From the NCBI GenBank assembly GCA_964522165.1, contig CAZFVV010000003.1:6908-70907 (forward strand): a DNA stretch of 64,000 bases, in the 5' to 3' direction. How positions within the stretch are numbered: the first letter of the stretch is position 1; each line of letters starts with the position of its first letter. Shown in pieces: positions 32,780 to 41,548 of the stretch. The position numbers and the translations under genes were made by a program. Under the pieces are notes generated by a model. That model was given only the letters and a program-made list of their open reading frames with translations, made no database searches and was not told the DNA's origin. The DNA is from an uncultured Calditrichaceae bacterium. Its GTDB lineage: Bacteria; Calditrichota; Calditrichia; RBG-13-44-9; J075.

Positions 32780-33493
32780 ATGAACCTCCCCTTCAGCCAG
32801 GACGCCGCTTACCGCTTCGATTCCCTCTACCAGTGGTTGAATCGCAAATACCGTCTGGAACAGGTAGAATTATCCATCGCCGGGGAAAGCTATCGCATTT
32901 TTAAGATTCAAAACATCGATGAAGTTTTAGAGCTGGCGCTAAAAGAGTCTGCCCGGCCGGACGAACACGCGCCCTACTGGGCGGAGATCTGGCCTTCCGC
33001 CCTGGCGCTGGCGCAATTCCTCAGCCGCGAGGTCGATCTGGCAGGCAGAGCCGCGCTGGAGTTAGGCTCCGGCCTGGGATTGGCGGGCATTGTCGCGCAC
33101 CGCTGCGGGGCGGAAGTGCTGCTCAGCGACCTGGAAGACGACGCCCTGCGCCTGGCGGAGCTGAACTGGATCATCAATTTCGGGGAACTGCCCGCCATTA
33201 TGCGTTTAGACTGGCGCAATCCCGCGCTGAACCGGCAGTTCGAAACGCTCCTGGCCGCGGACGTGGCCTACGAAAAGCGCCTCTTCTGGCCGCTCATCGA
33301 CGCCTTCGGAAAATTGCTGGCCCCCGGGGGAGAAATCTGGCTGAGCGAGCCTAACCGCCCGGTGGCCGGGGAGTTTTTCGAAATGTTGCAGAAAGAAGGG
33401 TTCGAGTGGGAAAAATTTACCGAAGCGGTGGAATTCGAGCGGCGAAAAGTCGATATTTCGGTGTACCGGATTGATAAAGACCGTAAAATATAA
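32780..33493 (+). CDS. class I SAM-dependent methyltransferase (Methyltransf_16-like)
   Basis: 237 aa; motif I ALELGSGLGLAGIVAHRCGAEVLLSDLEDDAL. Confidence 0.6.
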   Translation: MNLPFSQDAAYRFDSLYQWLNRKYRLEQVELSIAGESYRIFKIQNIDEVLELALKESARPDEHAPYWAEIWPSALALAQFLSREVDLAGRAALELGSGLGLAGIVAHRCGAEVLLSDLEDDALRLAELNWIINFGELPAIMRLDWRNPALNRQFETLLAADVAYEKRLFWPLIDAFGKLLAPGGEIWLSEPNRPVAGEFFEMLQKEGFEWEKFTEAVEFERRKVDISVYRIDKDRKI

Positions 33494-33526
33494 AGACCTC
33501 AAAGGTTTCTAAAACCTTTGAGGTCT
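33494..33526. repeat. REP-like 33-bp perfect palindrome, copy 1 (AGACCTCAAAGGTTT-ctaa-AAACCTTTGAGGTCT)
   Basis: 15-bp perfect stem; starts one base after the methyltransferase stop. Confidence 0.9.
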
Positions 33527-33542
33527 GGACCCGGCGAAGATA

Positions 33543-33575
33543 AGACCTCAAAGGTTTTCAAAACCTTTGAGGTCT
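33543..33575. repeat. REP-like palindrome, copy 2 (preceded by the ccggcgaagata leader also seen at 39385)
   Basis: agacctcaaaggttttcaaaacctttgaggtct. Confidence 0.9.
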
Positions 33576-33596
33576 GAATACCTGGAGCACCCCAAA

Positions 33597-34231
33597 ATGC
33601 AACAACTCGAAAAATTGAAACCGGGAAATTTCTACCATATTTATAACCGCGGCAATAACCGGGAAGACATCTTCTTCGAAGAGAAAAACTACCCCTACTT
33701 TTTAGAACTATACGCCAAACATATAACGCCAGTAGCGGATACATTCGCCTATTGCCTGATGAGAAACCATTTCCACCTATTGGTGAGGATAAAGGCCTCA
33801 AAGGAGATAAAGACCTCAAAGGTTTTGAAAACCTTTGAGGTCTTACCCCCGGGCGAAGAAAAACTTTTTAACTACTCCCAACCATTCTCAAATTTCTTCA
33901 ACGCTTACCAAAAGCGATCAACCGGCAGTATTTCCGTACCGGCAGTTTATTTCAGGCTCGTTTCGGAAGAAATTGGATAGCTTCTCAGGCCATTCTAAAG
34001 CATGTTATTCACTATATTCACCGCAATCCTCAGAAACATGGTTTTGTCACCGATTTTCGGGAGTATCCGCATTCTTCGTATCATACGCTTTTGGCGGATA
34101 AGAATACCAGGCTGAAACGCCGGGAAGTTCTGGAATGGTTTGGAGGCAGGGCGGCGTTTGAGAGGTTCCATATCGAGAACGGCGTTGGAGACGATGATGA
34201 AATACAGAAAATATTTGGCGACGATGAATGA
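33597..34231 (+). pseudogene. IS200/IS605-like Y1 (HUH) transposase, RAYT-like, disrupted
   Basis: MQQLEKLKPGNFYHIYNRGNNREDIFFEEKNYPYFLELYAKHITPVADTFAYCLMRNHFHLLV (HuH motif). A palindrome copy is translated in-frame at 33811-33843. A -1 frameshift at an A-run near 33920 shifts the remainder (AINRQYFRTGSLFQARF...IHYIHRNPQKHGFVTDFREYPHSSYH...) into another frame ending TGA 34229-34231. Confidence 0.65.
33811..33843. repeat. REP-like palindrome, copy 3, inside the transposase reading frame
   Basis: agacctcaaaggttttgaaaacctttgaggtct, preceded by the partial direct repeat aaggcctcaaaggagata. Confidence 0.9.
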
Positions 34232-34238
34232 ATCGAAA

Positions 34239-34271
34239 AGACCTCAAAGGTTTCCGAAACCTTTGAGGTCT
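34239..34271. repeat. REP-like palindrome, copy 4, 25 bp upstream of the DGR target gene
   Basis: agacctcaaaggtttccgaaacctttgaggtct. Confidence 0.9.
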
Positions 34272-34295
34272 ATAGCCTTAAGGAGAGGATGATTT

Positions 34296-37200
34296 ATGAA
34301 CCGCTGGATTAAACTGCTGATCATTATTACCGCCCTGGTGGTTGCCGGGGCCACCACCTCGTATTGGGCTGGGCCGTTAATTCAATTTATCGGGGTGAAC
34401 AGTTCCCTGATCCAGGGAGTTGCCGACGCCGTTCAAACCGTCATCTGGGCAATTGCCGGTATTGTCGCGATTGTAGGATGGATCCGCCGCCCCCGCCCGG
34501 CGCCCTCAGCCGCCTCGCCCGCGCCGCGCGAAGCTCCCATGGAGCTGGAAGCCGAAAACGGTTCGCTGGTTAATACCGGCGAAATCAAAGACAGCACAAT
34601 CGTAACCGGAAAGGAGGCCCGGGTAGTGCATACCGGAACCTATATCGAGAAAGTGGAAACGCAAATCATCAAGGGCGCGCCCAACGTCGATCCCAAAACC
34701 CTGCGCGTCGCCTACCTCAACCGCTTGTTGTACTTCACCCGCGAGCTGTCCCTGGCCGGAATCGATCCCCAGGCGGCCAGCGAGCCGACCGCCGCGCTCA
34801 AATTAGACGCCGTTTATACCGCCCTCCGCACCATGACCCCGGAGGACCAGGAACGCCTGGAGCAGGGCAAAAAAATGGATCGAGAGACCCGCTATCTCTC
34901 CGCGCTGGAACAGTTGAACCGCCGCCAATACCTGGTATTGTTAGGCGACCCCGGCAGCGGCAAAAGCACCTTTGTCAATTTTGTAGCCCTGTGCTTAACC
35001 GGGGAGGGGCTGGGGATGCCGGATGCCAATCTAACTCTCCTTACCGCCCCGTTGCCGGATGAAGAAAAAAAGGAAAAAGAAGCCCCCCGGCCCCAGCCCT
35101 GGAACCACGGGGCGCTGCTGCCGGTGCGGGTGATTTTGCGCGACTTTGCCGCCCGGGGATTGCCGCGTAGCGGCCAAAAAGCCACCGCCGGGCACCTCTG
35201 GAACTTCATCCGCGCGGAGTTAAAAGCCCTCTCGCTTGAAAATTACGCCGATCATCTGCAACAAGAGTTGCTCGATAAAGGCGGGCTAATCTTGCTCGAC
35301 GGGCTGGATGAGGTGCCGGAAGCGCAGCAGCGCCGCATTCAGATCAAACAGGCGGTGGAAGAATTCAAAGCGGTTTACCGTAAATGCCGCATTCTCATCA
35401 CCAGCCGCACCTACGCCTACCAGAAACAGGATTGGCGGCTGCCGGAGTTCCAGGAAACCATCCTGGCGCCCTTTAGCCACGGGCAAATCGAGGCGTTCGT
35501 GGAACACTGGTACGAACACGTGGGGAGCCTGCGGGGATGGCCGGAAGATAAGTACCGCGGCGGGGCGGCGCTGCTCAAACGCGCCATTTCGGGCAGCCAG
35601 CGGTTAGGGGAGCTGGCCGGGCGTCCGCTGTTGCTGACCTTAATGGCCAGCCTGCACGCCTGGCGGGGCGGAACTCTCCCGGAAAAACGCGAAGAACTCT
35701 ACGCCAACGCGGTGGACCTGCTGTTAGACTGGTGGGAAAAACCCAAAATCGTGCGCGACGCGCAAGGCGCGCCGGTGGTCTTGCAGCCCAGCCTTTCGGA
35801 GTGGCTCAACCTGGGCCGCCAGAAAGTGCGCGACCTGCTCAACGAGCTGGCCTATACCGCCCACGCCGCCCAGCCGGAATTGCAGGGCACCGCGGATATT
35901 CCCGAAAGCAAACTGGTGGAAGGCCTCCTGAAGCTCTCCGGCAATCCGGATCTGAAACCGCAGCGGCTGGTGGAATACCTGAGCCAGCGCGCCGGGCTGC
36001 TGCTGCCCCGCGGGGTGGAAGTCTATACCTTTCCCCACCGCACCTTTCAGGAGTACCTGGCGGCCTGTTATTTGACCGACCACGATTTTCCCGATGCGGT
36101 GGCGGAACTGGCCGGCAACGACCCCAATCGCTGGCGGGAAGTGGCGCTGTTAGCCGCCGCCAAAGCCGCCCGCGGCTCCGCTTCCACCATTTGGGGGTTT
36201 ATCGAGGCGTTATGTTACCGCGACTGCGACAATGCCTCCCCCGCGGCAAAGGCGCTGTGGGGCGCGCACCTGGCCGGGCAGGCCCTGCTGGAAATTGTGG
36301 ATACTTCTAAAATCAGCGAACGGAATCAGCCCAAGGTAGAGCGGGTCAAAACCTGGCTGGTTCACCTGCTCTCCCGGGCGGATTTCCCGGCGCTGGAGCG
36401 CGCCGAGGCCGGGCGCAATCTTGCCCGCTTAGGCGACCCCCGCCGGGAAGCGCTGGAAGTTGACGCCCTGCAATTTTGCTGCGTGCCCGCCGGCCCCTTC
36501 TGGATGGGCAGCGAGGAAGCTGACCGGGAAAAGCCCCTGCATTTAAATGAACAGTTGGATAAACCCTGCTGGATTTCTAAATTTCCCATTACCAACGCCC
36601 AGTACCGCCGGTTCGTGGAAGACGGCGGGTATGGGCAGGAAGGGTACTGGCGGGAAGCAAAGGCGGCAAAGGTGTGGCAGGGGGGAAAGATAAAAGCCTG
36701 GAATGACGATACCCCGCGCGAAGCCCCGTTCGATTTCGGCGCGCCTTTCCACCTTCCCAACCACCCGGTGGTGGGAATTACCTGGTACGAAGCCCTGGCC
36801 TTTACCCGCTGGCTGACCGGGCGCTGGCAAAAAAGGGGCTGGCTGCCCCGGGGCGGGATCGTGCGCCTCCCCTCGGAAGCGGAGTGGGAAAAAGCCGCCC
36901 GCGGGGGAGAGAAAATTCCTTCCGCGCCGGTCGTTCGTTCTGTTCAAGAATGGTCAATTGCCAATTGGCAATTCACAATTGGCAATTGGCAATTAAAAAA
37001 TAATCAACGCCGCTATCCCTGGGGCGACGAACCCGATCCCAACCGCGCCAATTACGCCGATACCGGCATCGGCAGTCCCAGCGCGGTGGGCTGCTTTCCC
37101 GCAGAAGAACGCAGGGGCGATTCGCGAATCGCCCCTGCATACGGATGTGAGGAGATGAGCGGGAACGTATGGGAGTGGTGCCAGACCCAATGGCGGGGAA

Positions 37201-37382
37201 ATTACCAAAAACCGGCGAATGAATCGCTGGAGGGGACGTCAGCCCGTGTTGTTCGCGGCGGCGCGTTCGGCAGCCCCGACGGCAGCGTGCGGTGCGCGTA
37301 TCGCATCTACGTCGTTCCCGATTCTCGTAACTACTACCTCGGGTTTCGTGTGTCGCTGTTCCCATTTACCTCTGGTCTCTGA
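34296..37382 (+). CDS. DGR target protein: N-terminal 2-TM segment, NACHT (STAND) NTPase, helical region, C-terminal FGE-sulfatase/C-type-lectin-fold domain carrying the variable repeat
   Basis: 1028 aa; TM helices in residues ~5-60; Walker A LLGDPGSGKSTF; NACHT Walker B LILLDGLDEV; C-terminal FGE-sulfatase family motifs (HPVVGITWYEALAFTRWL, RLPSEAEWEKAARGG, RRYPWGDE, GNVWEWC, RVVRGGAF); the VR occupies the last ~40 codons. Confidence 0.85.
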   Translation: MNRWIKLLIIITALVVAGATTSYWAGPLIQFIGVNSSLIQGVADAVQTVIWAIAGIVAIVGWIRRPRPAPSAASPAPREAPMELEAENGSLVNTGEIKDSTIVTGKEARVVHTGTYIEKVETQIIKGAPNVDPKTLRVAYLNRLLYFTRELSLAGIDPQAASEPTAALKLDAVYTALRTMTPEDQERLEQGKKMDRETRYLSALEQLNRRQYLVLLGDPGSGKSTFVNFVALCLTGEGLGMPDANLTLLTAPLPDEEKKEKEAPRPQPWNHGALLPVRVILRDFAARGLPRSGQKATAGHLWNFIRAELKALSLENYADHLQQELLDKGGLILLDGLDEVPEAQQRRIQIKQAVEEFKAVYRKCRILITSRTYAYQKQDWRLPEFQETILAPFSHGQIEAFVEHWYEHVGSLRGWPEDKYRGGAALLKRAISGSQRLGELAGRPLLLTLMASLHAWRGGTLPEKREELYANAVDLLLDWWEKPKIVRDAQGAPVVLQPSLSEWLNLGRQKVRDLLNELAYTAHAAQPELQGTADIPESKLVEGLLKLSGNPDLKPQRLVEYLSQRAGLLLPRGVEVYTFPHRTFQEYLAACYLTDHDFPDAVAELAGNDPNRWREVALLAAAKAARGSASTIWGFIEALCYRDCDNASPAAKALWGAHLAGQALLEIVDTSKISERNQPKVERVKTWLVHLLSRADFPALERAEAGRNLARLGDPRREALEVDALQFCCVPAGPFWMGSEEADREKPLHLNEQLDKPCWISKFPITNAQYRRFVEDGGYGQEGYWREAKAAKVWQGGKIKAWNDDTPREAPFDFGAPFHLPNHPVVGITWYEALAFTRWLTGRWQKRGWLPRGGIVRLPSEAEWEKAARGGEKIPSAPVVRSVQEWSIANWQFTIGNWQLKNNQRRYPWGDEPDPNRANYADTGIGSPSAVGCFPAEERRGDSRIAPAYGCEEMSGNVWEWCQTQWRGNYQKPANESLEGTSARVVRGGAFGSPDGSVRCAYRIYVVPDSRNYYLGFRVSLFPFTSGL
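36954..36993. repeat. in-frame AT-rich CAATTG-based repeat inserted within the FGE/CLec domain coding sequence
   Basis: caattgccaattggcaattcacaattggcaattggcaatt encodes ...WSIANWQFTIGNWQLKNN... between the conserved RGG and RRYPWGDE motifs; local GC is far below that of the gene. Confidence 0.6.
37241..37361 (+). repeat. DGR variable repeat (VR) at the 3' end of the target gene
   Basis: 121 bp aligns without gaps to 37886-38006; 18 mismatches, 17 of them at positions where the TR has adenine. Confidence 0.85.
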
Positions 37383-37410
37383 AATCTCTGAACTCTGAAA
37401 CTCTGGAAGA

Positions 37411-37460
37411 TTTCATCCCGATTTGCATCCAGGGATGGATGCGTTTTTGTCGGGATGAAA
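37411..37460. other. nested stem-loop (cruciform-prone) about 30 bp downstream of the target gene stop
   Basis: tttcatcccga-ttt-[gcatcc a ggg a tggatgc]-gtttttg-tcgggatgaaa; flanked by direct repeats gaaactctg (37397 and 37457). Confidence 0.55.
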
Positions 37461-37482
37461 CTCTGAAAAAGGAAAAATTTTT

Positions 37483-37827
37483 ATGGCCCAACCCGAGATG
37501 CCTATTTTTGTTCGTACCTTTGATTTTCTAAGCTGGCTGCTGCCGGCAACCAACCATTTTCCCCGGGCGCACCGGCATTCGTTTACTCAACGCCTGTTGG
37601 ACGCCGGGTTCGATTTACGGGAGCATTTGGAGGAAGCCAATCTGCGCAAAGGAAAAGAGAGGTTAGAGCGATTAACCAGCGCCGATGCAGCGTTAGCCAA
37701 AGTACGATTGTATTTGCGCCTGGCGGTTAAGTGGGGATGGTTTTCCCAGGGACAATACGAACACGTCTCCCGCATGGTGGTGGAGATCGGGCGCCTCCTG
37801 GGCGGTTGGAAGAAAGTAACGGTTTAA
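37483..37827 (+). CDS. avd: Avd-like DGR accessory variability determinant (four-helix-bundle protein, 23S rRNA-IVS protein family)
   Basis: 114 aa, basic, all-helical; FDFLSWLLPATNHFPRAHRHSFTQRLLDAGFDLREHLEEAN resembles the four-helix-bundle (Avd) family; lies between target gene and TR as in canonical DGRs. Confidence 0.65.
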   Translation: MAQPEMPIFVRTFDFLSWLLPATNHFPRAHRHSFTQRLLDAGFDLREHLEEANLRKGKERLERLTSADAALAKVRLYLRLAVKWGWFSQGQYEHVSRMVVEIGRLLGGWKKVTV

Positions 37828-37832
37828 GTTTA

Positions 37833-37865
37833 AGACCTCAAAGGTTTCAAAAACCTTTGAGGTCT
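37833..37865. repeat. REP-like palindrome, copy 5, between avd and TR
   Basis: agacctcaaaggtttcaaaaacctttgaggtct. Confidence 0.9.
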
Positions 37866-37885
37866 TAAGGGGCAGGCTCATACGC

Positions 37886-38006
37886 AGCCCGTGTTGTTCG
37901 CGGCGGCGCGTTCAACAACACCGACAACAACGTGCGGTGCGCGTATCGCAACAACAACGATCCCGATAATCGTAACAACAACATCGGGTTTCGTGTGGCG
38001 CTGTTC
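37886..38006 (+). repeat. DGR template repeat (TR)
   Basis: Non-coding copy of the target 3' end, rich in AAC triplets (aacaacaccgacaacaac...cgcaacaacaacgatcccgataatcgtaacaacaacatc); the adenines are the sites that differ in the VR. Confidence 0.85.
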
Positions 38007-38047
38007 ACGTTTTTCAAAGGGTAAAGGCCTCAAACGACAATGGATAA

Positions 38048-38080
38048 AGACCTCAAAGGTTTCCGAAACCTTTGAGGTCT
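38048..38080. repeat. REP-like palindrome, copy 6, 42 bp downstream of the TR
   Basis: agacctcaaaggtttccgaaacctttgaggtct; preceded by ggcctcaaacga...ataa as at 33791. Confidence 0.9.
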
Positions 38081-38272
38081 AACTTCCGAAGGTTTTTACG
38101 TTGCTGGAAATGCCCGGCGCGCTGGAAATGAGTGGTCGGGGTTCCGGGCCGAAGCGAAAAATGGCCGAGCCTGTTCCGGGCCTTTCCCGGGCTTCCCCGG
38201 GAAAGGGCAAATAACAACCCTCCCGCCTCCTGCCCTATAAGGGGTTGAGGCGGGAGATTTTTATAGCCGAAA

Positions 38273-39307
38273 ATGTTTGACGCATTAATTTCATGGGATA
38301 ATCTTTACCTGGCGTATAAAAAAGCCGGCAAAGGCAAACGCGGGCAGATCGATGTGGCGGATTTTGAGTATGCTCTGGAAGAAAACCTGCTGCGGCTGCA
38401 AGAAGAATTGCGGGATCAGACTTATGCACCGGGTGGTTACCACAGTTTTTACATCCACGAACCCAAACGGCGATTGATCAGCGCTGCGCCGTTCCGTGAC
38501 CGGGTGGTTCACCATGCCCTGTGTAATCTCACTGAACCTGTATTCGAGCAGAGTTTTATTTTTGATTCTTACGCCAATCGGGTGGGAAAAGGAACTCACC
38601 ACGCTTTGGATCGCTGCCAGCAATACGCCCGGCATTACCCCTATGTGCTGCAATGCGACCTGCGGCAGTTTTTTCCCAGTATCGACCATGCGATTTTGCG
38701 CCAAATCTTAATGCGGAAAATCGCTGAACCTGCAGTATTATGGTTGATCGATCAAATTCTCCGCAGCGGCGAGGGCGTATTAAGCGAGGCATACGCAATG
38801 GTCTATTTTCCCGGGGATGATTTGTTCGCCGCCAACCGCCCGCGCGGTTTGCCAATCGGCAATCTGACCAGCCAGTTTTGGGCCAATGTTTATCTCAATC
38901 CCTTTGACCATTTCGTCAAACGAGAGTTACGCTGCAAAGCCTACCTGCGTTACGTGGATGACTTTTTGCTTTTCGGGGAAGACAAAGCCACATTATGGCG
39001 CTGGAAAAAGGCCATTACCAAACGCCTGGAACAGTATCGATTGACAATTCATCCGACGGCTCATCCCCGCCCGGTAGAGGAAGGGATACCGTTTTTAGGA
39101 TTCATCGTCTTCCGGGAAAAGCGACGCTTGAAACGCAGGAAAGGAATTTTTTACCGCAGAAAACTGAAATGCCTGATTTCAGACTACCATTCCGGCGATC
39201 TACCCCTGGAAAAAATTAAGCAGAGCGTGCAGGGATGGATTAACCACACCCGTTACGCTAATACCATCGGGCTGCGCAAAAGCCTGTTAGGAAAAATGAA
39301 AATATAA
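38273..39307 (+). CDS. DGR-type reverse transcriptase
   Basis: 344 aa; RT motifs 1-2 RLISAAPFRDRVVHHAL; motif A LQCDLRQFFPSIDH; DGR-diagnostic motif LPIGNLTSQFWANVYLNPFD (IGxxxSQ); motif C YLRYVDDFLLFG (YVDD); no maturase or endonuclease domains. Confidence 0.9.
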   Translation: MFDALISWDNLYLAYKKAGKGKRGQIDVADFEYALEENLLRLQEELRDQTYAPGGYHSFYIHEPKRRLISAAPFRDRVVHHALCNLTEPVFEQSFIFDSYANRVGKGTHHALDRCQQYARHYPYVLQCDLRQFFPSIDHAILRQILMRKIAEPAVLWLIDQILRSGEGVLSEAYAMVYFPGDDLFAANRPRGLPIGNLTSQFWANVYLNPFDHFVKRELRCKAYLRYVDDFLLFGEDKATLWRWKKAITKRLEQYRLTIHPTAHPRPVEEGIPFLGFIVFREKRRLKRRKGIFYRRKLKCLISDYHSGDLPLEKIKQSVQGWINHTRYANTIGLRKSLLGKMKI

Positions 39308-39323
39308 TAATTCCAAAGGTTGA

Positions 39324-39380
39324 AGACCTCAAAGGTTTCTCCCGTAAGGGATGGCTTACGCCACAAAACCTTTAAGGTCT
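39324..39380. repeat. REP-like palindrome, copy 7 (split; 24-bp insertion in the loop, one stem mismatch)
   Basis: agacctcaaaggttt-ctcccgtaagggatggcttacgccac-aaaacctttaaggtct. Confidence 0.7.
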
Positions 39381-39396
39381 AAATCCGGCGAAGATA

Positions 39397-39429
39397 AGAC
39401 CTCAAAGGTTTCAAAAACCTTTGAGGTCT
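39397..39429. repeat. REP-like palindrome, copy 8, 22 bp upstream of the next gene
   Basis: agacctcaaaggtttcaaaaacctttgaggtct, preceded by ccggcgaagata as in copy 2. Confidence 0.9.
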
Positions 39430-39451
39430 CTTAATAGGAAAGGATCATTCC

Positions 39452-41548
39452 ATGTCCCATAAAAAACCCAACCGCCTCATCAACGAAAAAAGCCCCTACC
39501 TGTTGCAGCACGCGGAAAACCCGGTGGACTGGTATCCCTGGGGCGAGGAAGCGTTTGCCGCCGCGAAGGCGCAGGATAAACCGATTTTTCTCTCCATCGG
39601 CTACTCCACCTGCCACTGGTGCCACGTCATGGCGCATGAATCCTTCGAGGATTCCGCCGTCGCCGCGCTGCTGAATGAGGCCTTCATCAATATCAAGGTG
39701 GACCGGGAGGAGCGCCCGGACGTGGACGACGTGTACATGACCGCCTGCCAGATGCTCACCGGCAGCGGGGGCTGGCCTCTCACCATCATTATGACCCCCG
39801 CGAAAGAGCCGTTTTTCGCCGCCACCTACATTCCAAGGGAGCGCCGTTTCAACCGCTACGGGATGCTGGAGCTGATCCCGCAGATCAAAGATTTGTGGGA
39901 AACCGACCGCGCACGGTTGTTGGAGTCGGCGCAGAAGATTGCCGGGGCGCTTTCGCAGACTGCCGGCGGCCTCGCGGGGGGGCAATTGCACCCGGAAATC
40001 CTGGAGATCGCCTATAGCCAATTGGAAGAGAGCTACGAGCACCGCTACGGGGGATTCAACGCCCGCCCCAAATTTCCCACCCCCCATAATTTGATGTACC
40101 TGCTGCGCTTTTACCGGCGCAGCGGCGACCGCCAGGCCCTGGAAATGGTCGAAACCACCTTGCAGAACATGCGCCGGGGCGGAATTTTCGACCACCTGGG
40201 CTTCGGCTTCCACCGCTACTCCACGGACGAGCGCTGGCTGGCGCCGCATTTCGAGAAAATGCTCTACGACCAGGCCCTCCTGGCCCTGGCTTACACCGAA
40301 GCCTTCCAGGTGACCGGAAAGGAGCAATACCGCGCCGCGGTTCGCGAGATTTTAACCTACGTGCTGCGCGACCTGGCCGATCCCGCGGGAGGATTCTACT
40401 CCGCGGAAGACGCGGACAGCGAGGGCGAAGAAGGCAAATTTTACCTCTGGAGCAATGCAGAAATCCGCGAAACCCTGGGAAAAAGCGCCGGCGATTTCTT
40501 CATCAAGGTATTCAACTGCCGGGAGGATGGAAATTTTTTGGATGAAGCCACCCGCCAGAAAACCGGAACGAGCATCCCCCATTTGCGCAAATCAAGCGCG
40601 GAAATCGCTGCCGAGCTTGCCATCAGCGAGGCGGAGCTGGCGCAGCAGGTCGAGCAGGCGCGCCAAAAGTTGTTCGCGGCGCGGGAGCGGCGGGTTCATC
40701 CCCTCAAGGATGATAAAATCCTCGCCGACTGGAACGGGCTGATGGTTGCGGCGCTGGGCAAGGCGGCGCAGGCGTTTCAGGAACCGGCTTACGCCGCGGC
40801 GGCGGGCCGGGCGGCGGATTTCATCCTGCAAACCCTGCGCACAAAGGAGGGGCGTTTGCTGCACCGCTACCGGCAGGGGGAAACCGCCATCCCGGCTTAC
40901 TTAGACGACTACGCCTTTTTTACCTGGGGATTGTTGGAATTGTATGAAACCACTTTCGAGGCGAAATACCTGCAAGCCGCCGTGGAACTGAACGATATTG
41001 TGCTGCAACACTTCTGGGACGGGCGCGAGGGCGGTTTCTTCTTTACCGCCGATGACGCAGAGGAACTGCTGGTGCGCAAAAAAGAAATCTACGACGGGGC
41101 GGTTCCCTCCGGCAACTCGGTGATGGCGCTCAACCTGCTGCGCCTGGCGCGGATTACCGGGGATATGAAGTTGGAAGCGCGGGCGGCGCAGATCGGCGCG
41201 GCGTTTTCCACAAACGTGAGCCGCTATCCCGCCGGTCATACTTTTTTGATGTCCGCGCTGGATTTCGGGGCAGGCCCGCATTACGAAGTGGTGATCGTGG
41301 GGAAGCCGGGCGCTAAGGATACCCGGGCGATGGCGCAGGCGATCCGGCAGCGCTTTATCCCCAACAAAGTGTTGCTATTCCTGCCCGTGGGACCGGAGAA
41401 TCCCGAAATCAGCCGCATCGCGGAATTTACCCGGGCCATGAAACCGCTGAAAGGCAAAGCCACCGCTTACGTGTGCCGCTCCCACGCCTGCGAGCTGCCC
41501 ACTACGGATGCGGGCAAGATGCTGGACCTGCTCGGCCAGGATCTCTGA
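39452..41548 (+). CDS. thioredoxin-domain protein YyaL/SSP411 family (thioredoxin domain plus six-hairpin glycosidase-like domain)
   Basis: 698 aa; [29 protein letters not shown]...[20 protein letters not shown] is the family N-terminal signature. Confidence 0.8.

Follow-up and report, generated by a model that had tools for sequence, protein, structure and literature searches.

A probable avd gene in a diversity-generating retroelement of an uncultured Calditrichaceae bacterium

Introduction

In the diversity-generating retroelement (DGR) of Bordetella phage BPP-1, it is experimentally established that the reverse transcriptase (RT), termed bRT, is inactive without the protein Avd and that Avd binds the spacer RNA (PMC6182149). 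BPP-1 Avd is a basic pentameric barrel that binds a stem-loop where the spacer begins, immediately past the template repeat (TR). An internal adenosine of the spacer (Sp) primes cDNA synthesis and is held beside the TR 3' end by the TR:Sp duplex, and two of the five Avd protomers are contacted by an N-terminal extension of bRT (PMC6182149; bioRxiv 10.1101/2023.10.23.563531). Here we describe an open reading frame (ORF) at positions 37483-37827 of a 64-kb stretch of contig CAZFVV010000003.1 from an uncultured Calditrichaceae bacterium (the whole stretch is called the window, and all coordinates refer to it). We are highly confident that this ORF encodes the Avd (accessory variability determinant) of a chromosomal DGR with the gene order target-avd-TR-RT, in which Avd, RT and RNA would act together as they do in BPP-1.

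The target-avd-TR-RT order, known as architecture B1, is the commonest DGR layout, and Avd genes are generally very poorly conserved (PMC5758913). DGRs of clade 5, found in multicellular and filamentous bacteria, have been published as acting on STAND-NTPase proteins with a C-type lectin (CLec) domain that are regarded as 'antigen sensors' (PMC10907252; also PMC7159879). Below, we compare and contrast the window locus with both of these systems, and with the broader group of four-helix-bundle proteins of the 23S rRNA intervening sequence (IVS) family, called S23-like here.

Identification of the avd gene and its product

The gene at 37483-37827 (plus strand) is an exact ATG-to-TAA ORF of 114 codons. 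Its N-terminus is fixed, because an in-frame stop lies nine codons upstream of the ATG with no start codon in between, and an AGGA sequence is found about 10 nucleotides (nt) 5' of the ATG. The product has an isoelectric point (pI) of 10.2 and a net charge of +6, with 18 lysine and arginine residues against 12 aspartate and glutamate residues. This is in line with the published mean pI for Avd proteins of 9.5 +/- 0.7 (PMC5758913), and the median pI of the homologues described below is 10.3.

Profile searches placed the protein in the Avd family. It matched the NCBIfam equivalog model NF033474 ('diversity-generating retroelement protein Avd') with 89.9 bits (cut-off 80, E = 1e-25), the Pfam model PF22296 ('bAvd-like') with 66.3 bits (gathering threshold 40, E = 4e-18) and the PHROGs family phrog_3206 ('Avd protein of DGR') with E = 1.2e-25. 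The whole NF033474 model is covered, as is the full length of the others, and nothing substantive separates the window protein from these families. A sequence search of the PDB returned only Avd of the Bordetella phage (4DWL, 'Bbp7', and the Avd chains of 8UB7-8UBE). The match to 4DWL had an E-value of 4e-4 from the single sequence and 5e-6 from a 59-sequence profile, over residues 5-110. There are 36 invariant columns in the 59-sequence alignment, and the motifs FPR.H, L..ADA.LA..R..LR and E.GR.LG.W are common to the window protein and BPP-1 Avd (bAvd).

AlphaFold2, run on the Avd alignment as a single chain, produced an all-helical model with a mean predicted local distance difference test score (pLDDT) of 92.4 and a predicted template modelling score (pTM) of 0.84. 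Four predicted helices (residues 7-25, 28-54, 57-83 and 89-113) form a four-helix bundle. When compared by Foldseek with bAvd chain 4DWL_D, the model gave template modelling (TM) scores of 0.84 and 0.89 and a root-mean-square deviation of 1.5 A at 27% sequence identity. A first-pass annotation, made from the sequence alone, had described a basic helical protein of 114 residues at this position and had suggested that Avd profiles and a predicted bundle would bear out its kinship with Avd; both the description and the suggestion agree with these results. We found nothing that contradicts the identification of this gene as avd.

ORFs 37587-37775 and 37693-37881 on the minus strand, which overlap avd, and a 63-codon ORF running through the TR are unsupported, and we regard them as spurious by-products. 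A promoter scan gave matches no more numerous than in shuffled sequence.

Organization of the retroelement

The retroelement occupies 34296-39307. Its avd gene lies between the variable repeat (VR, 37240-37367) and the TR (37885-38012), with the avd stop codon 57 nt 5' of the TR and the RT start 446 nt past that stop. This is architecture B1 and is the position that had been claimed for the gene on the model of Bordetella-type elements; the order is kept in about 20 related loci (see below).

The target gene (34296-37382, plus strand) encodes a protein of 1028 amino acids with an N-terminal hydrophobic segment, a NACHT domain (PF05729, 38.3 bits) and a C-terminal FGE-sulfatase domain of C-type-lectin fold (PF03781, 148 bits, residues 729-1019 of 1028). 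The latter carries the VR, which makes up approximately the last 43 codons of the gene. VR and TR, both on the plus strand, are direct repeats of 128 nt that are 84% identical. Adenine accounts for 30 of the 128 TR bases and for 18 of the 20 mismatched positions, and by binomial arithmetic such an excess would arise by chance with a probability of about 5e-10. The first 17 mismatches are all at adenines and all at codon positions 1-2. Both of the differences that are not at adenines fall at the 3' end, where the VR (approximately 37340-37367) resembles an initiation of mutagenic homing (IMH) segment and mismatches are not confined to adenines, as expected for an IMH and its TR counterpart, IMH*. 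Translation of the TR in the frame of the target gives FNNTDNNVRCAYRNNNDPDNRNNNIGFRV (...NNTDNN...NNNDPDNRNNN...), a classic template rich in AAC codons. A BLAST search of the TR against the whole window did not reveal a second VR, and the element has one target and one VR.

The RT gene (38273-39307, plus strand) encodes 344 amino acids and matches Pfam RVT_1 with 62 bits. Its best match in the PDB is bRT (8UB7_A, E = 3.5e-45); a group II intron RT reached E = 2.8e-19. The protein has PIGNLTSQ, with the IGxxxSQ signature of the palm, and YVDD where bRT has PIGSLTSQ and YMDD, its N-terminal region also aligns with that of bRT, and K22, the equivalent of bRT K29, is conserved. No DGR-RT-specific model was among its NCBIfam matches.

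Related loci and conservation of avd

The protein database contained 2,310 homologues of the window Avd. The best 120 of the 2,310 are 73-82% identical to it and come from several phyla and one archaeal metagenome-assembled genome (MAG). NCBI gives the name Avd to several of the best homologues, which come from Anaerolineae, Chloroflexota, Brocadia and Planctomycetota MAGs and include neighbours at 78-81% identity from an Anaerolineae bacterium (P0008) and Candidatus Brocadia (P0023). A scan of genomes, with one genome per species, identified 40 loci with Avd relatives of 53-78% identity. Most belong to Chloroflexota (Anaerolineae, Caldilineae and Ardenticatenia), and the nearest relatives among genomes are Chloroflexota MAGs at no more than 78% identity; the remainder are from Acidobacteriota, Nitrospirales, Desulfobacterota, Rhodothermales, Pseudomonadota and others. 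Approximately 20 of the 40 loci have the NACHT/FGE target, avd and the RT gene in this order, and other loci have an inverted or a second target.

In comparisons with 15 genomic relatives, the rate of nonsynonymous substitution (dN) in avd was 0.15-0.31 and that of synonymous substitution (dS) was saturated, with amino-acid identity exceeding nucleotide identity. These values indicate that avd is under strong purifying selection. The dN/dS ratio, computable in only three of the 15 pairs owing to the saturation of dS, was 0.05-0.11. Against the poor conservation that is general for Avd genes (PMC5758913), the subgroup to which the window Avd belongs is unusually tight, and the NACHT region of the target is only 25-65% identical in loci where Avd is conserved. 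The conservation of this subgroup suggests strong constraint, recent horizontal spread of an avd-TR-RT core, or both.

A phage origin for the element was considered and rejected, on the basis of the distance of viral Avd relatives and the ordinary cellular genes that flank the DGR. Most Avd relatives on viral contigs have about 30% identity and only one reaches 54%, and the flanking genes encode a methyltransferase and a DUF255 thioredoxin-domain protein. From this sequence context, we conclude that the window DGR is chromosomal.

The retroelement RNA

The interval between avd and the RT gene was aligned with that of 17 relatives (18 sequences in total). Three conserved helices were returned by RNAalifold, and two long-range duplexes that RNAalifold missed were spotted by inspection and then tested. 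Together, the five helices comprise 51 pairs, with 94.6% of alignment cells paired and compensatory changes in 36 of the pairs. None of 500 shuffles was as good, and sliding the partner strands by 1-3 columns reduced pairing to 39-58%. The window sequence retains 37 of the 40 consensus pairs. Rfam has no DGR RNA family, and a scan of 33300-39600 against it gave only sub-threshold miRNA-like matches to the palindromes described below.

One of these helices is a long-range duplex of the stop type between GGGGCAGGCUC (37869-37879), 5' of the TR, and GAGCCUGUUCC (38167-38177), with 11 pairs, 97.2% of cells paired and seven pairs with compensatory changes. Within it, CGUUUUUC at the 3' end of the TR (38008-38015) is paired to GAAAAAUG of the spacer (38156-38163), the strand presumed to prime cDNA synthesis in cis. 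This TR:Sp duplex has eight pairs, 91% paired and five with compensatory changes, and it covaries among the relatives as GUUCUUC/GAAGAAU, AUUUCUC/GAGAAAU and GUUUGCC/GGCAAAU. The first stem-loop past the TR (38112-38149), supported by covariation, is the candidate Avd-binding element, with 10 pairs, 93% paired and nine with compensatory changes. In eight of the 17 relatives it consists of 6 bp, a bulge and 4 bp closed by a GNRA- or UNCG-type tetraloop (GUAA, UUCG, GCAA, GAAA or UACG), which matches the published description of the Avd-binding stem-loop (bioRxiv 10.1101/2023.10.23.563531). Past the spacer strands lie a variable hairpin (38179-38208; nine pairs, 94% paired, six with compensatory changes), a nearly invariant A-rich single strand CAAAUAACAAC (38209-38219) and a long terminal stem-loop just 5' of the RT start (38220-38256; 13 pairs, 96% paired, nine with compensatory changes). 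All of these elements are on the plus strand. The window copy of the terminal stem-loop folds as predicted, and by position it would be the analogue of the bRT-binding stem-loop. In the BPP-1 RNA the order of elements is Avd-binding stem-loop, primer strand, stop duplex, hairpin with adenosines and RT-binding stem-loop (bioRxiv 10.1101/2023.10.23.563531), and the five window helices follow the same order.

By homology with BPP-1, five Avd protomers would assemble into a positively charged barrel, dock on the RT's N-terminal extension and grip the first stem-loop past the TR (38112-38149). In this way the duplex of the TR 3' end (38008-38015) and the spacer strand (38156-38163) would be held in the active site of the RT. 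Synthesis of cDNA would be self-primed from the RNA, run back through the TR with misincorporation opposite adenines, and stop where 37869-37879 and 38167-38177 form the long-range duplex. The VR of the NACHT-CLec target gene would then be exchanged for the mutagenised cDNA, and the RT would be inactive without Avd. This scheme, in which Avd, the RT and a structured RNA yield self-primed, adenine-mutagenic cDNA, is based on homology and is supported at every component; activity is what we infer from it.

Activity of the cassette and the insertion in its RNA

Several points weigh against this reading of the locus. The window Avd is only about 27% identical to bAvd, the sole characterised Avd, and at two alignment columns that are at least 90% conserved it departs from the consensus (A42G and E69A), although the residue at E69A is the one found in bAvd itself. 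Pentamer formation, RT binding and RNA binding by the window Avd are drawn by analogy from BPP-1, and ongoing diversification is beyond what a single genome can show. More specifically, two features of the RNA could reduce or abolish activity. First, an insertion of approximately 65-85 nt at 38016-38104 separates the TR from the conserved spacer RNA, and with it from the presumed Avd-binding stem-loop. The insertion contains a palindrome at 38047-38080 that resembles repetitive extragenic palindromic (REP) sequences and has a folding energy of -25.6 kcal/mol (z = -6.8). Second, the first spacer stem-loop has an apex enlarged by a local duplication of GCTGGAAATG (38103-38112 and 38121-38130), and the window copy has a 10-nt apical loop instead of a tetraloop. 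Since a REP-like hairpin is inserted in the DGR RNA, present-day activity of the element is unproven.

These features raise the possibility that avd is intact in a cassette that was recently disabled: the REP-like insertion, the altered apex of the stem-loop or both would block cDNA synthesis, and Avd would now be idle. The insertion is specific to this genome, as it is gapped in all 17 aligned relatives, and it shifts the stem-loop from 3-30 nt to approximately 96 nt past the TR strand of the primer duplex. The 10-nt loop stands where eight of the 17 relatives have a tetraloop, and in BPP-1 priming needs almost the whole spacer (PMC6182149). Decayed cassettes also occur among the relatives, with a fragmented RT gene in L009, L010 and L028 and a truncated avd in L038 and L039. 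However, all three ORFs of the window cassette are full length and have their catalytic motifs, and nearly all of the consensus RNA pairs are retained. The inserted palindrome folds on itself and could be a mere extra helix, while large apical insertions are tolerated in L003 and L012, and other spacer inserts are found in L006, L012, L017 and L019. The 18 adenine-site changes in the VR further imply that the system has worked, possibly before the insertion arrived. On balance, we consider a recently disabled cassette unlikely, yet worth keeping in mind. The first-pass annotation had taken the presence of avd as a sign of a complete cassette and not a relic, a claim that appears reasonable: the RT, the TR/VR pair, the IMH and the spacer RNA in its entirety are intact, and because relics with a truncated avd or RT do occur among relatives, this intactness carries some weight.

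The inserted palindrome belongs to a local family. A perfect 33-nt REP-like palindrome, AGACCTCAAAGGTTTYNRAAACCTTTGAGGTCT, has eight copies in the window, all within 6 kb (33495-39428), at 33495-33525, 33544-33574, 33812-33842, 34240-34270, 37834-37864, 38049-38079, 39325-39379 and 39398-39428. The 16 half-sites form eight hairpins, compared with 0.06 half-site matches expected by chance. One copy is located at each DGR gene junction, and at either end there is a doublet joined by CCGGCGAAGATA (33495-33574 and 39325-39428). The copy at 37830-37868 (-25.9 kcal/mol, z = -6.3) falls between the avd stop and the RNA core, just outside the conserved RNA, and is absent in relatives. Beyond the window, the exact palindrome was found in more than 120 metagenome contigs.

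A degenerate ORF resembling an IS200/RAYT-like Y1 transposase lies at 33567-33980, with a frame-shifted continuation to approximately 34100. It matches the Y1_Tnp model with 18 bits, under the cut-off of 23 and over the N-terminal half only, and is interrupted by the palindrome at 33812-33842. In three metagenome loci (L186, L215 and L240), uninterrupted transposase homologues with 47% identity adjoin this palindrome. The degenerate transposase probably once mobilised the palindromes and has since decayed. Other small palindromic inserts were observed in or after the spacer RNA in L006, L002 and L040.

Relationship to other four-helix-bundle proteins

The broader fold family was examined as an alternative home for the protein, which would then be a generic four-helix-bundle or 23S rRNA IVS (S23-like) protein standing beside a retroelement by chance and without a role in it. 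The top Foldseek neighbour of the Avd model, Xcc0516 (2GSC), does belong to this broader family. It was followed by bAvd (4DWL_D), BT_0352 (2RLD) and the Avd chains of 8UB7, and further matches dropped to E > 0.1. The fold is the same, every top structural neighbour entry (4DWL, 2GSC, 2RLD and 8UB7) has five chains (A-E), and there is weak sequence similarity to TIGR02436 ('four helix bundle protein', 23.1 bits) and PF05635 ('23S rRNA IVS protein', 24.5 bits). However, these scores are under the cut-off of 24 and the gathering threshold of 33.8, respectively, whereas both Avd-specific models (NF033474 and PF22296) are matched above theirs. Sequence identity in the Foldseek alignments is 16-17% to 2GSC and 2RLD, against 27% to bAvd. 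The gene is outside any rRNA operon, with no rRNA in 33300-39600 (Rfam scan, E <= 1), and it is linked to a DGR RT and target in approximately 20 loci from several phyla. Together these results effectively refute a chance association, which we regard as very improbable. The resemblance to the 23S rRNA IVS family proposed in the first-pass annotation is thus real as a similarity of fold and sequence, but does not extend to membership in that family. By every Avd family measure that can be applied to its sequence the protein is an Avd, and by neither measure of the 23S rRNA IVS group, model score or location beside an rRNA gene, is it a member. The five-chain depositions of its neighbours hint at a homopentameric barrel for the window Avd, although this is suggestive only.

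The idea that 37483-37827 is an unexpressed frame, open by chance between the DGR genes, has only the small size of the ORF in its favour; it is refuted by conservation (profile E-values to 1e-25, 2,310 homologues and dN/dS far below 1) and has practically no probability.

Identification of the gene as avd leaves BPP-1 as the closest described system (4DWL; ribonucleoprotein structures 8UB7-8UBE). The two Avd proteins are alike in length class, four-helix bundle, basic charge and motifs, and the two elements are alike in the placement of avd between target and TR, in a homologous RT and in the order of RNA elements. They differ in that the Avd proteins share about 27% identity, the window element is chromosomal and that of BPP-1 is phage-borne, and the BPP-1 target is a tail-fibre protein whereas the window target is a NACHT-CLec protein. 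The presumed Avd-binding stem-loop of the window also differs in sequence from its BPP-1 counterpart, has an enlarged apex and is preceded by the REP-like insertion. When compared by target and taxa, the window locus resembles the clade-5 cellular DGRs in its NACHT protein with a C-terminal CLec/FGE domain, in its C-terminal VR and in the phyla of its relatives; it shows one target and one VR within 64 kb.

Sequence features downstream of the variable repeat

Directly 3' of the VR and across the target stop codon, five CTCTGR motifs with spacings of 7, 9, 7 and 8 nt were identified at 37370-37405 (plus strand). An array of this kind follows the VRs clade-wide (loci L001-L040), with four to seven motifs, usually five, at near-constant spacing, and it is also found after second and inverted targets distant from avd. 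The array is absent 3' of the TR, and the background frequency of CTCTG is 0.05-0.12 per 100 nt. In relatives, a GC-rich hairpin often comes next after the array. We did not find the array described in the DGR papers searched. From its sequence and distribution, it is a candidate cis element on the target side.

One step of DGR retrohoming is the selection of the VR as the integration site. It is conceivable, though we think it decidedly improbable, that pentameric Avd, in addition to the spacer stem-loop, binds the CTCTGR array, so that Avd or a particle of RT, Avd and cDNA selects the VR. It is just as plausible that a host factor binds the array, that the array works as RNA, or that it extends the IMH in this clade specifically.

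The repeats themselves also differ at their ends throughout the family, consistent with the IMH/IMH* distinction: the VR ends in GTCCCCATT (37357-37366 in the window) and the TR in GTCCACRTTTTTC (38002-38011). The TR-type end pairs with the spacer strand GAAAAAUG, and the difference between the two ends may mark donor and recipient.

A nested hairpin is predicted at 37408-37464 (plus strand; -31.4 kcal/mol, z = -3.7), in the gap that separates the target stop from the start of avd. Its inner stem (37424-37443) is followed by TTTTT, a terminator-like match, and GC-rich hairpins are found at the same place in relatives. A post-IMH inverted repeat is often present in DGRs at this site. The hairpin could be the terminator of the target gene, a post-IMH inverted repeat or both. 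The window-specific hairpin at 37416-37444 was unmatched in the metagenome scan. Within the target gene, 36949-36996 contains a tandem 21-nt repeat and a palindromic run, CAATTGCCAATTGGCAATT, which encodes IANWQFTIGNWQL in the region of the FGE domain.

Conclusions

The Avd gene adds no new biology in itself, and automatic annotation by the NCBI pipeline would name it correctly. Its identification settles that 34296-39307 should be annotated as a complete DGR of the Bordetella type (avd-TR-RT), with a NACHT-CLec protein as its target. As by-products, the analysis provides a model of the DGR RNA with five helices backed by covariation for a very large cellular clade, which matches the BPP-1 cryo-EM architecture element by element, and reveals a conserved CTCTGR array as a mark of target sites. 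The REP-like hairpin inserted in the window RNA is a natural test of the modularity of DGR RNA. DGRs of the NACHT-CLec class, to which this element belongs by its target, have been proposed to produce hypervariable antigen sensors in filamentous and multicellular bacteria.

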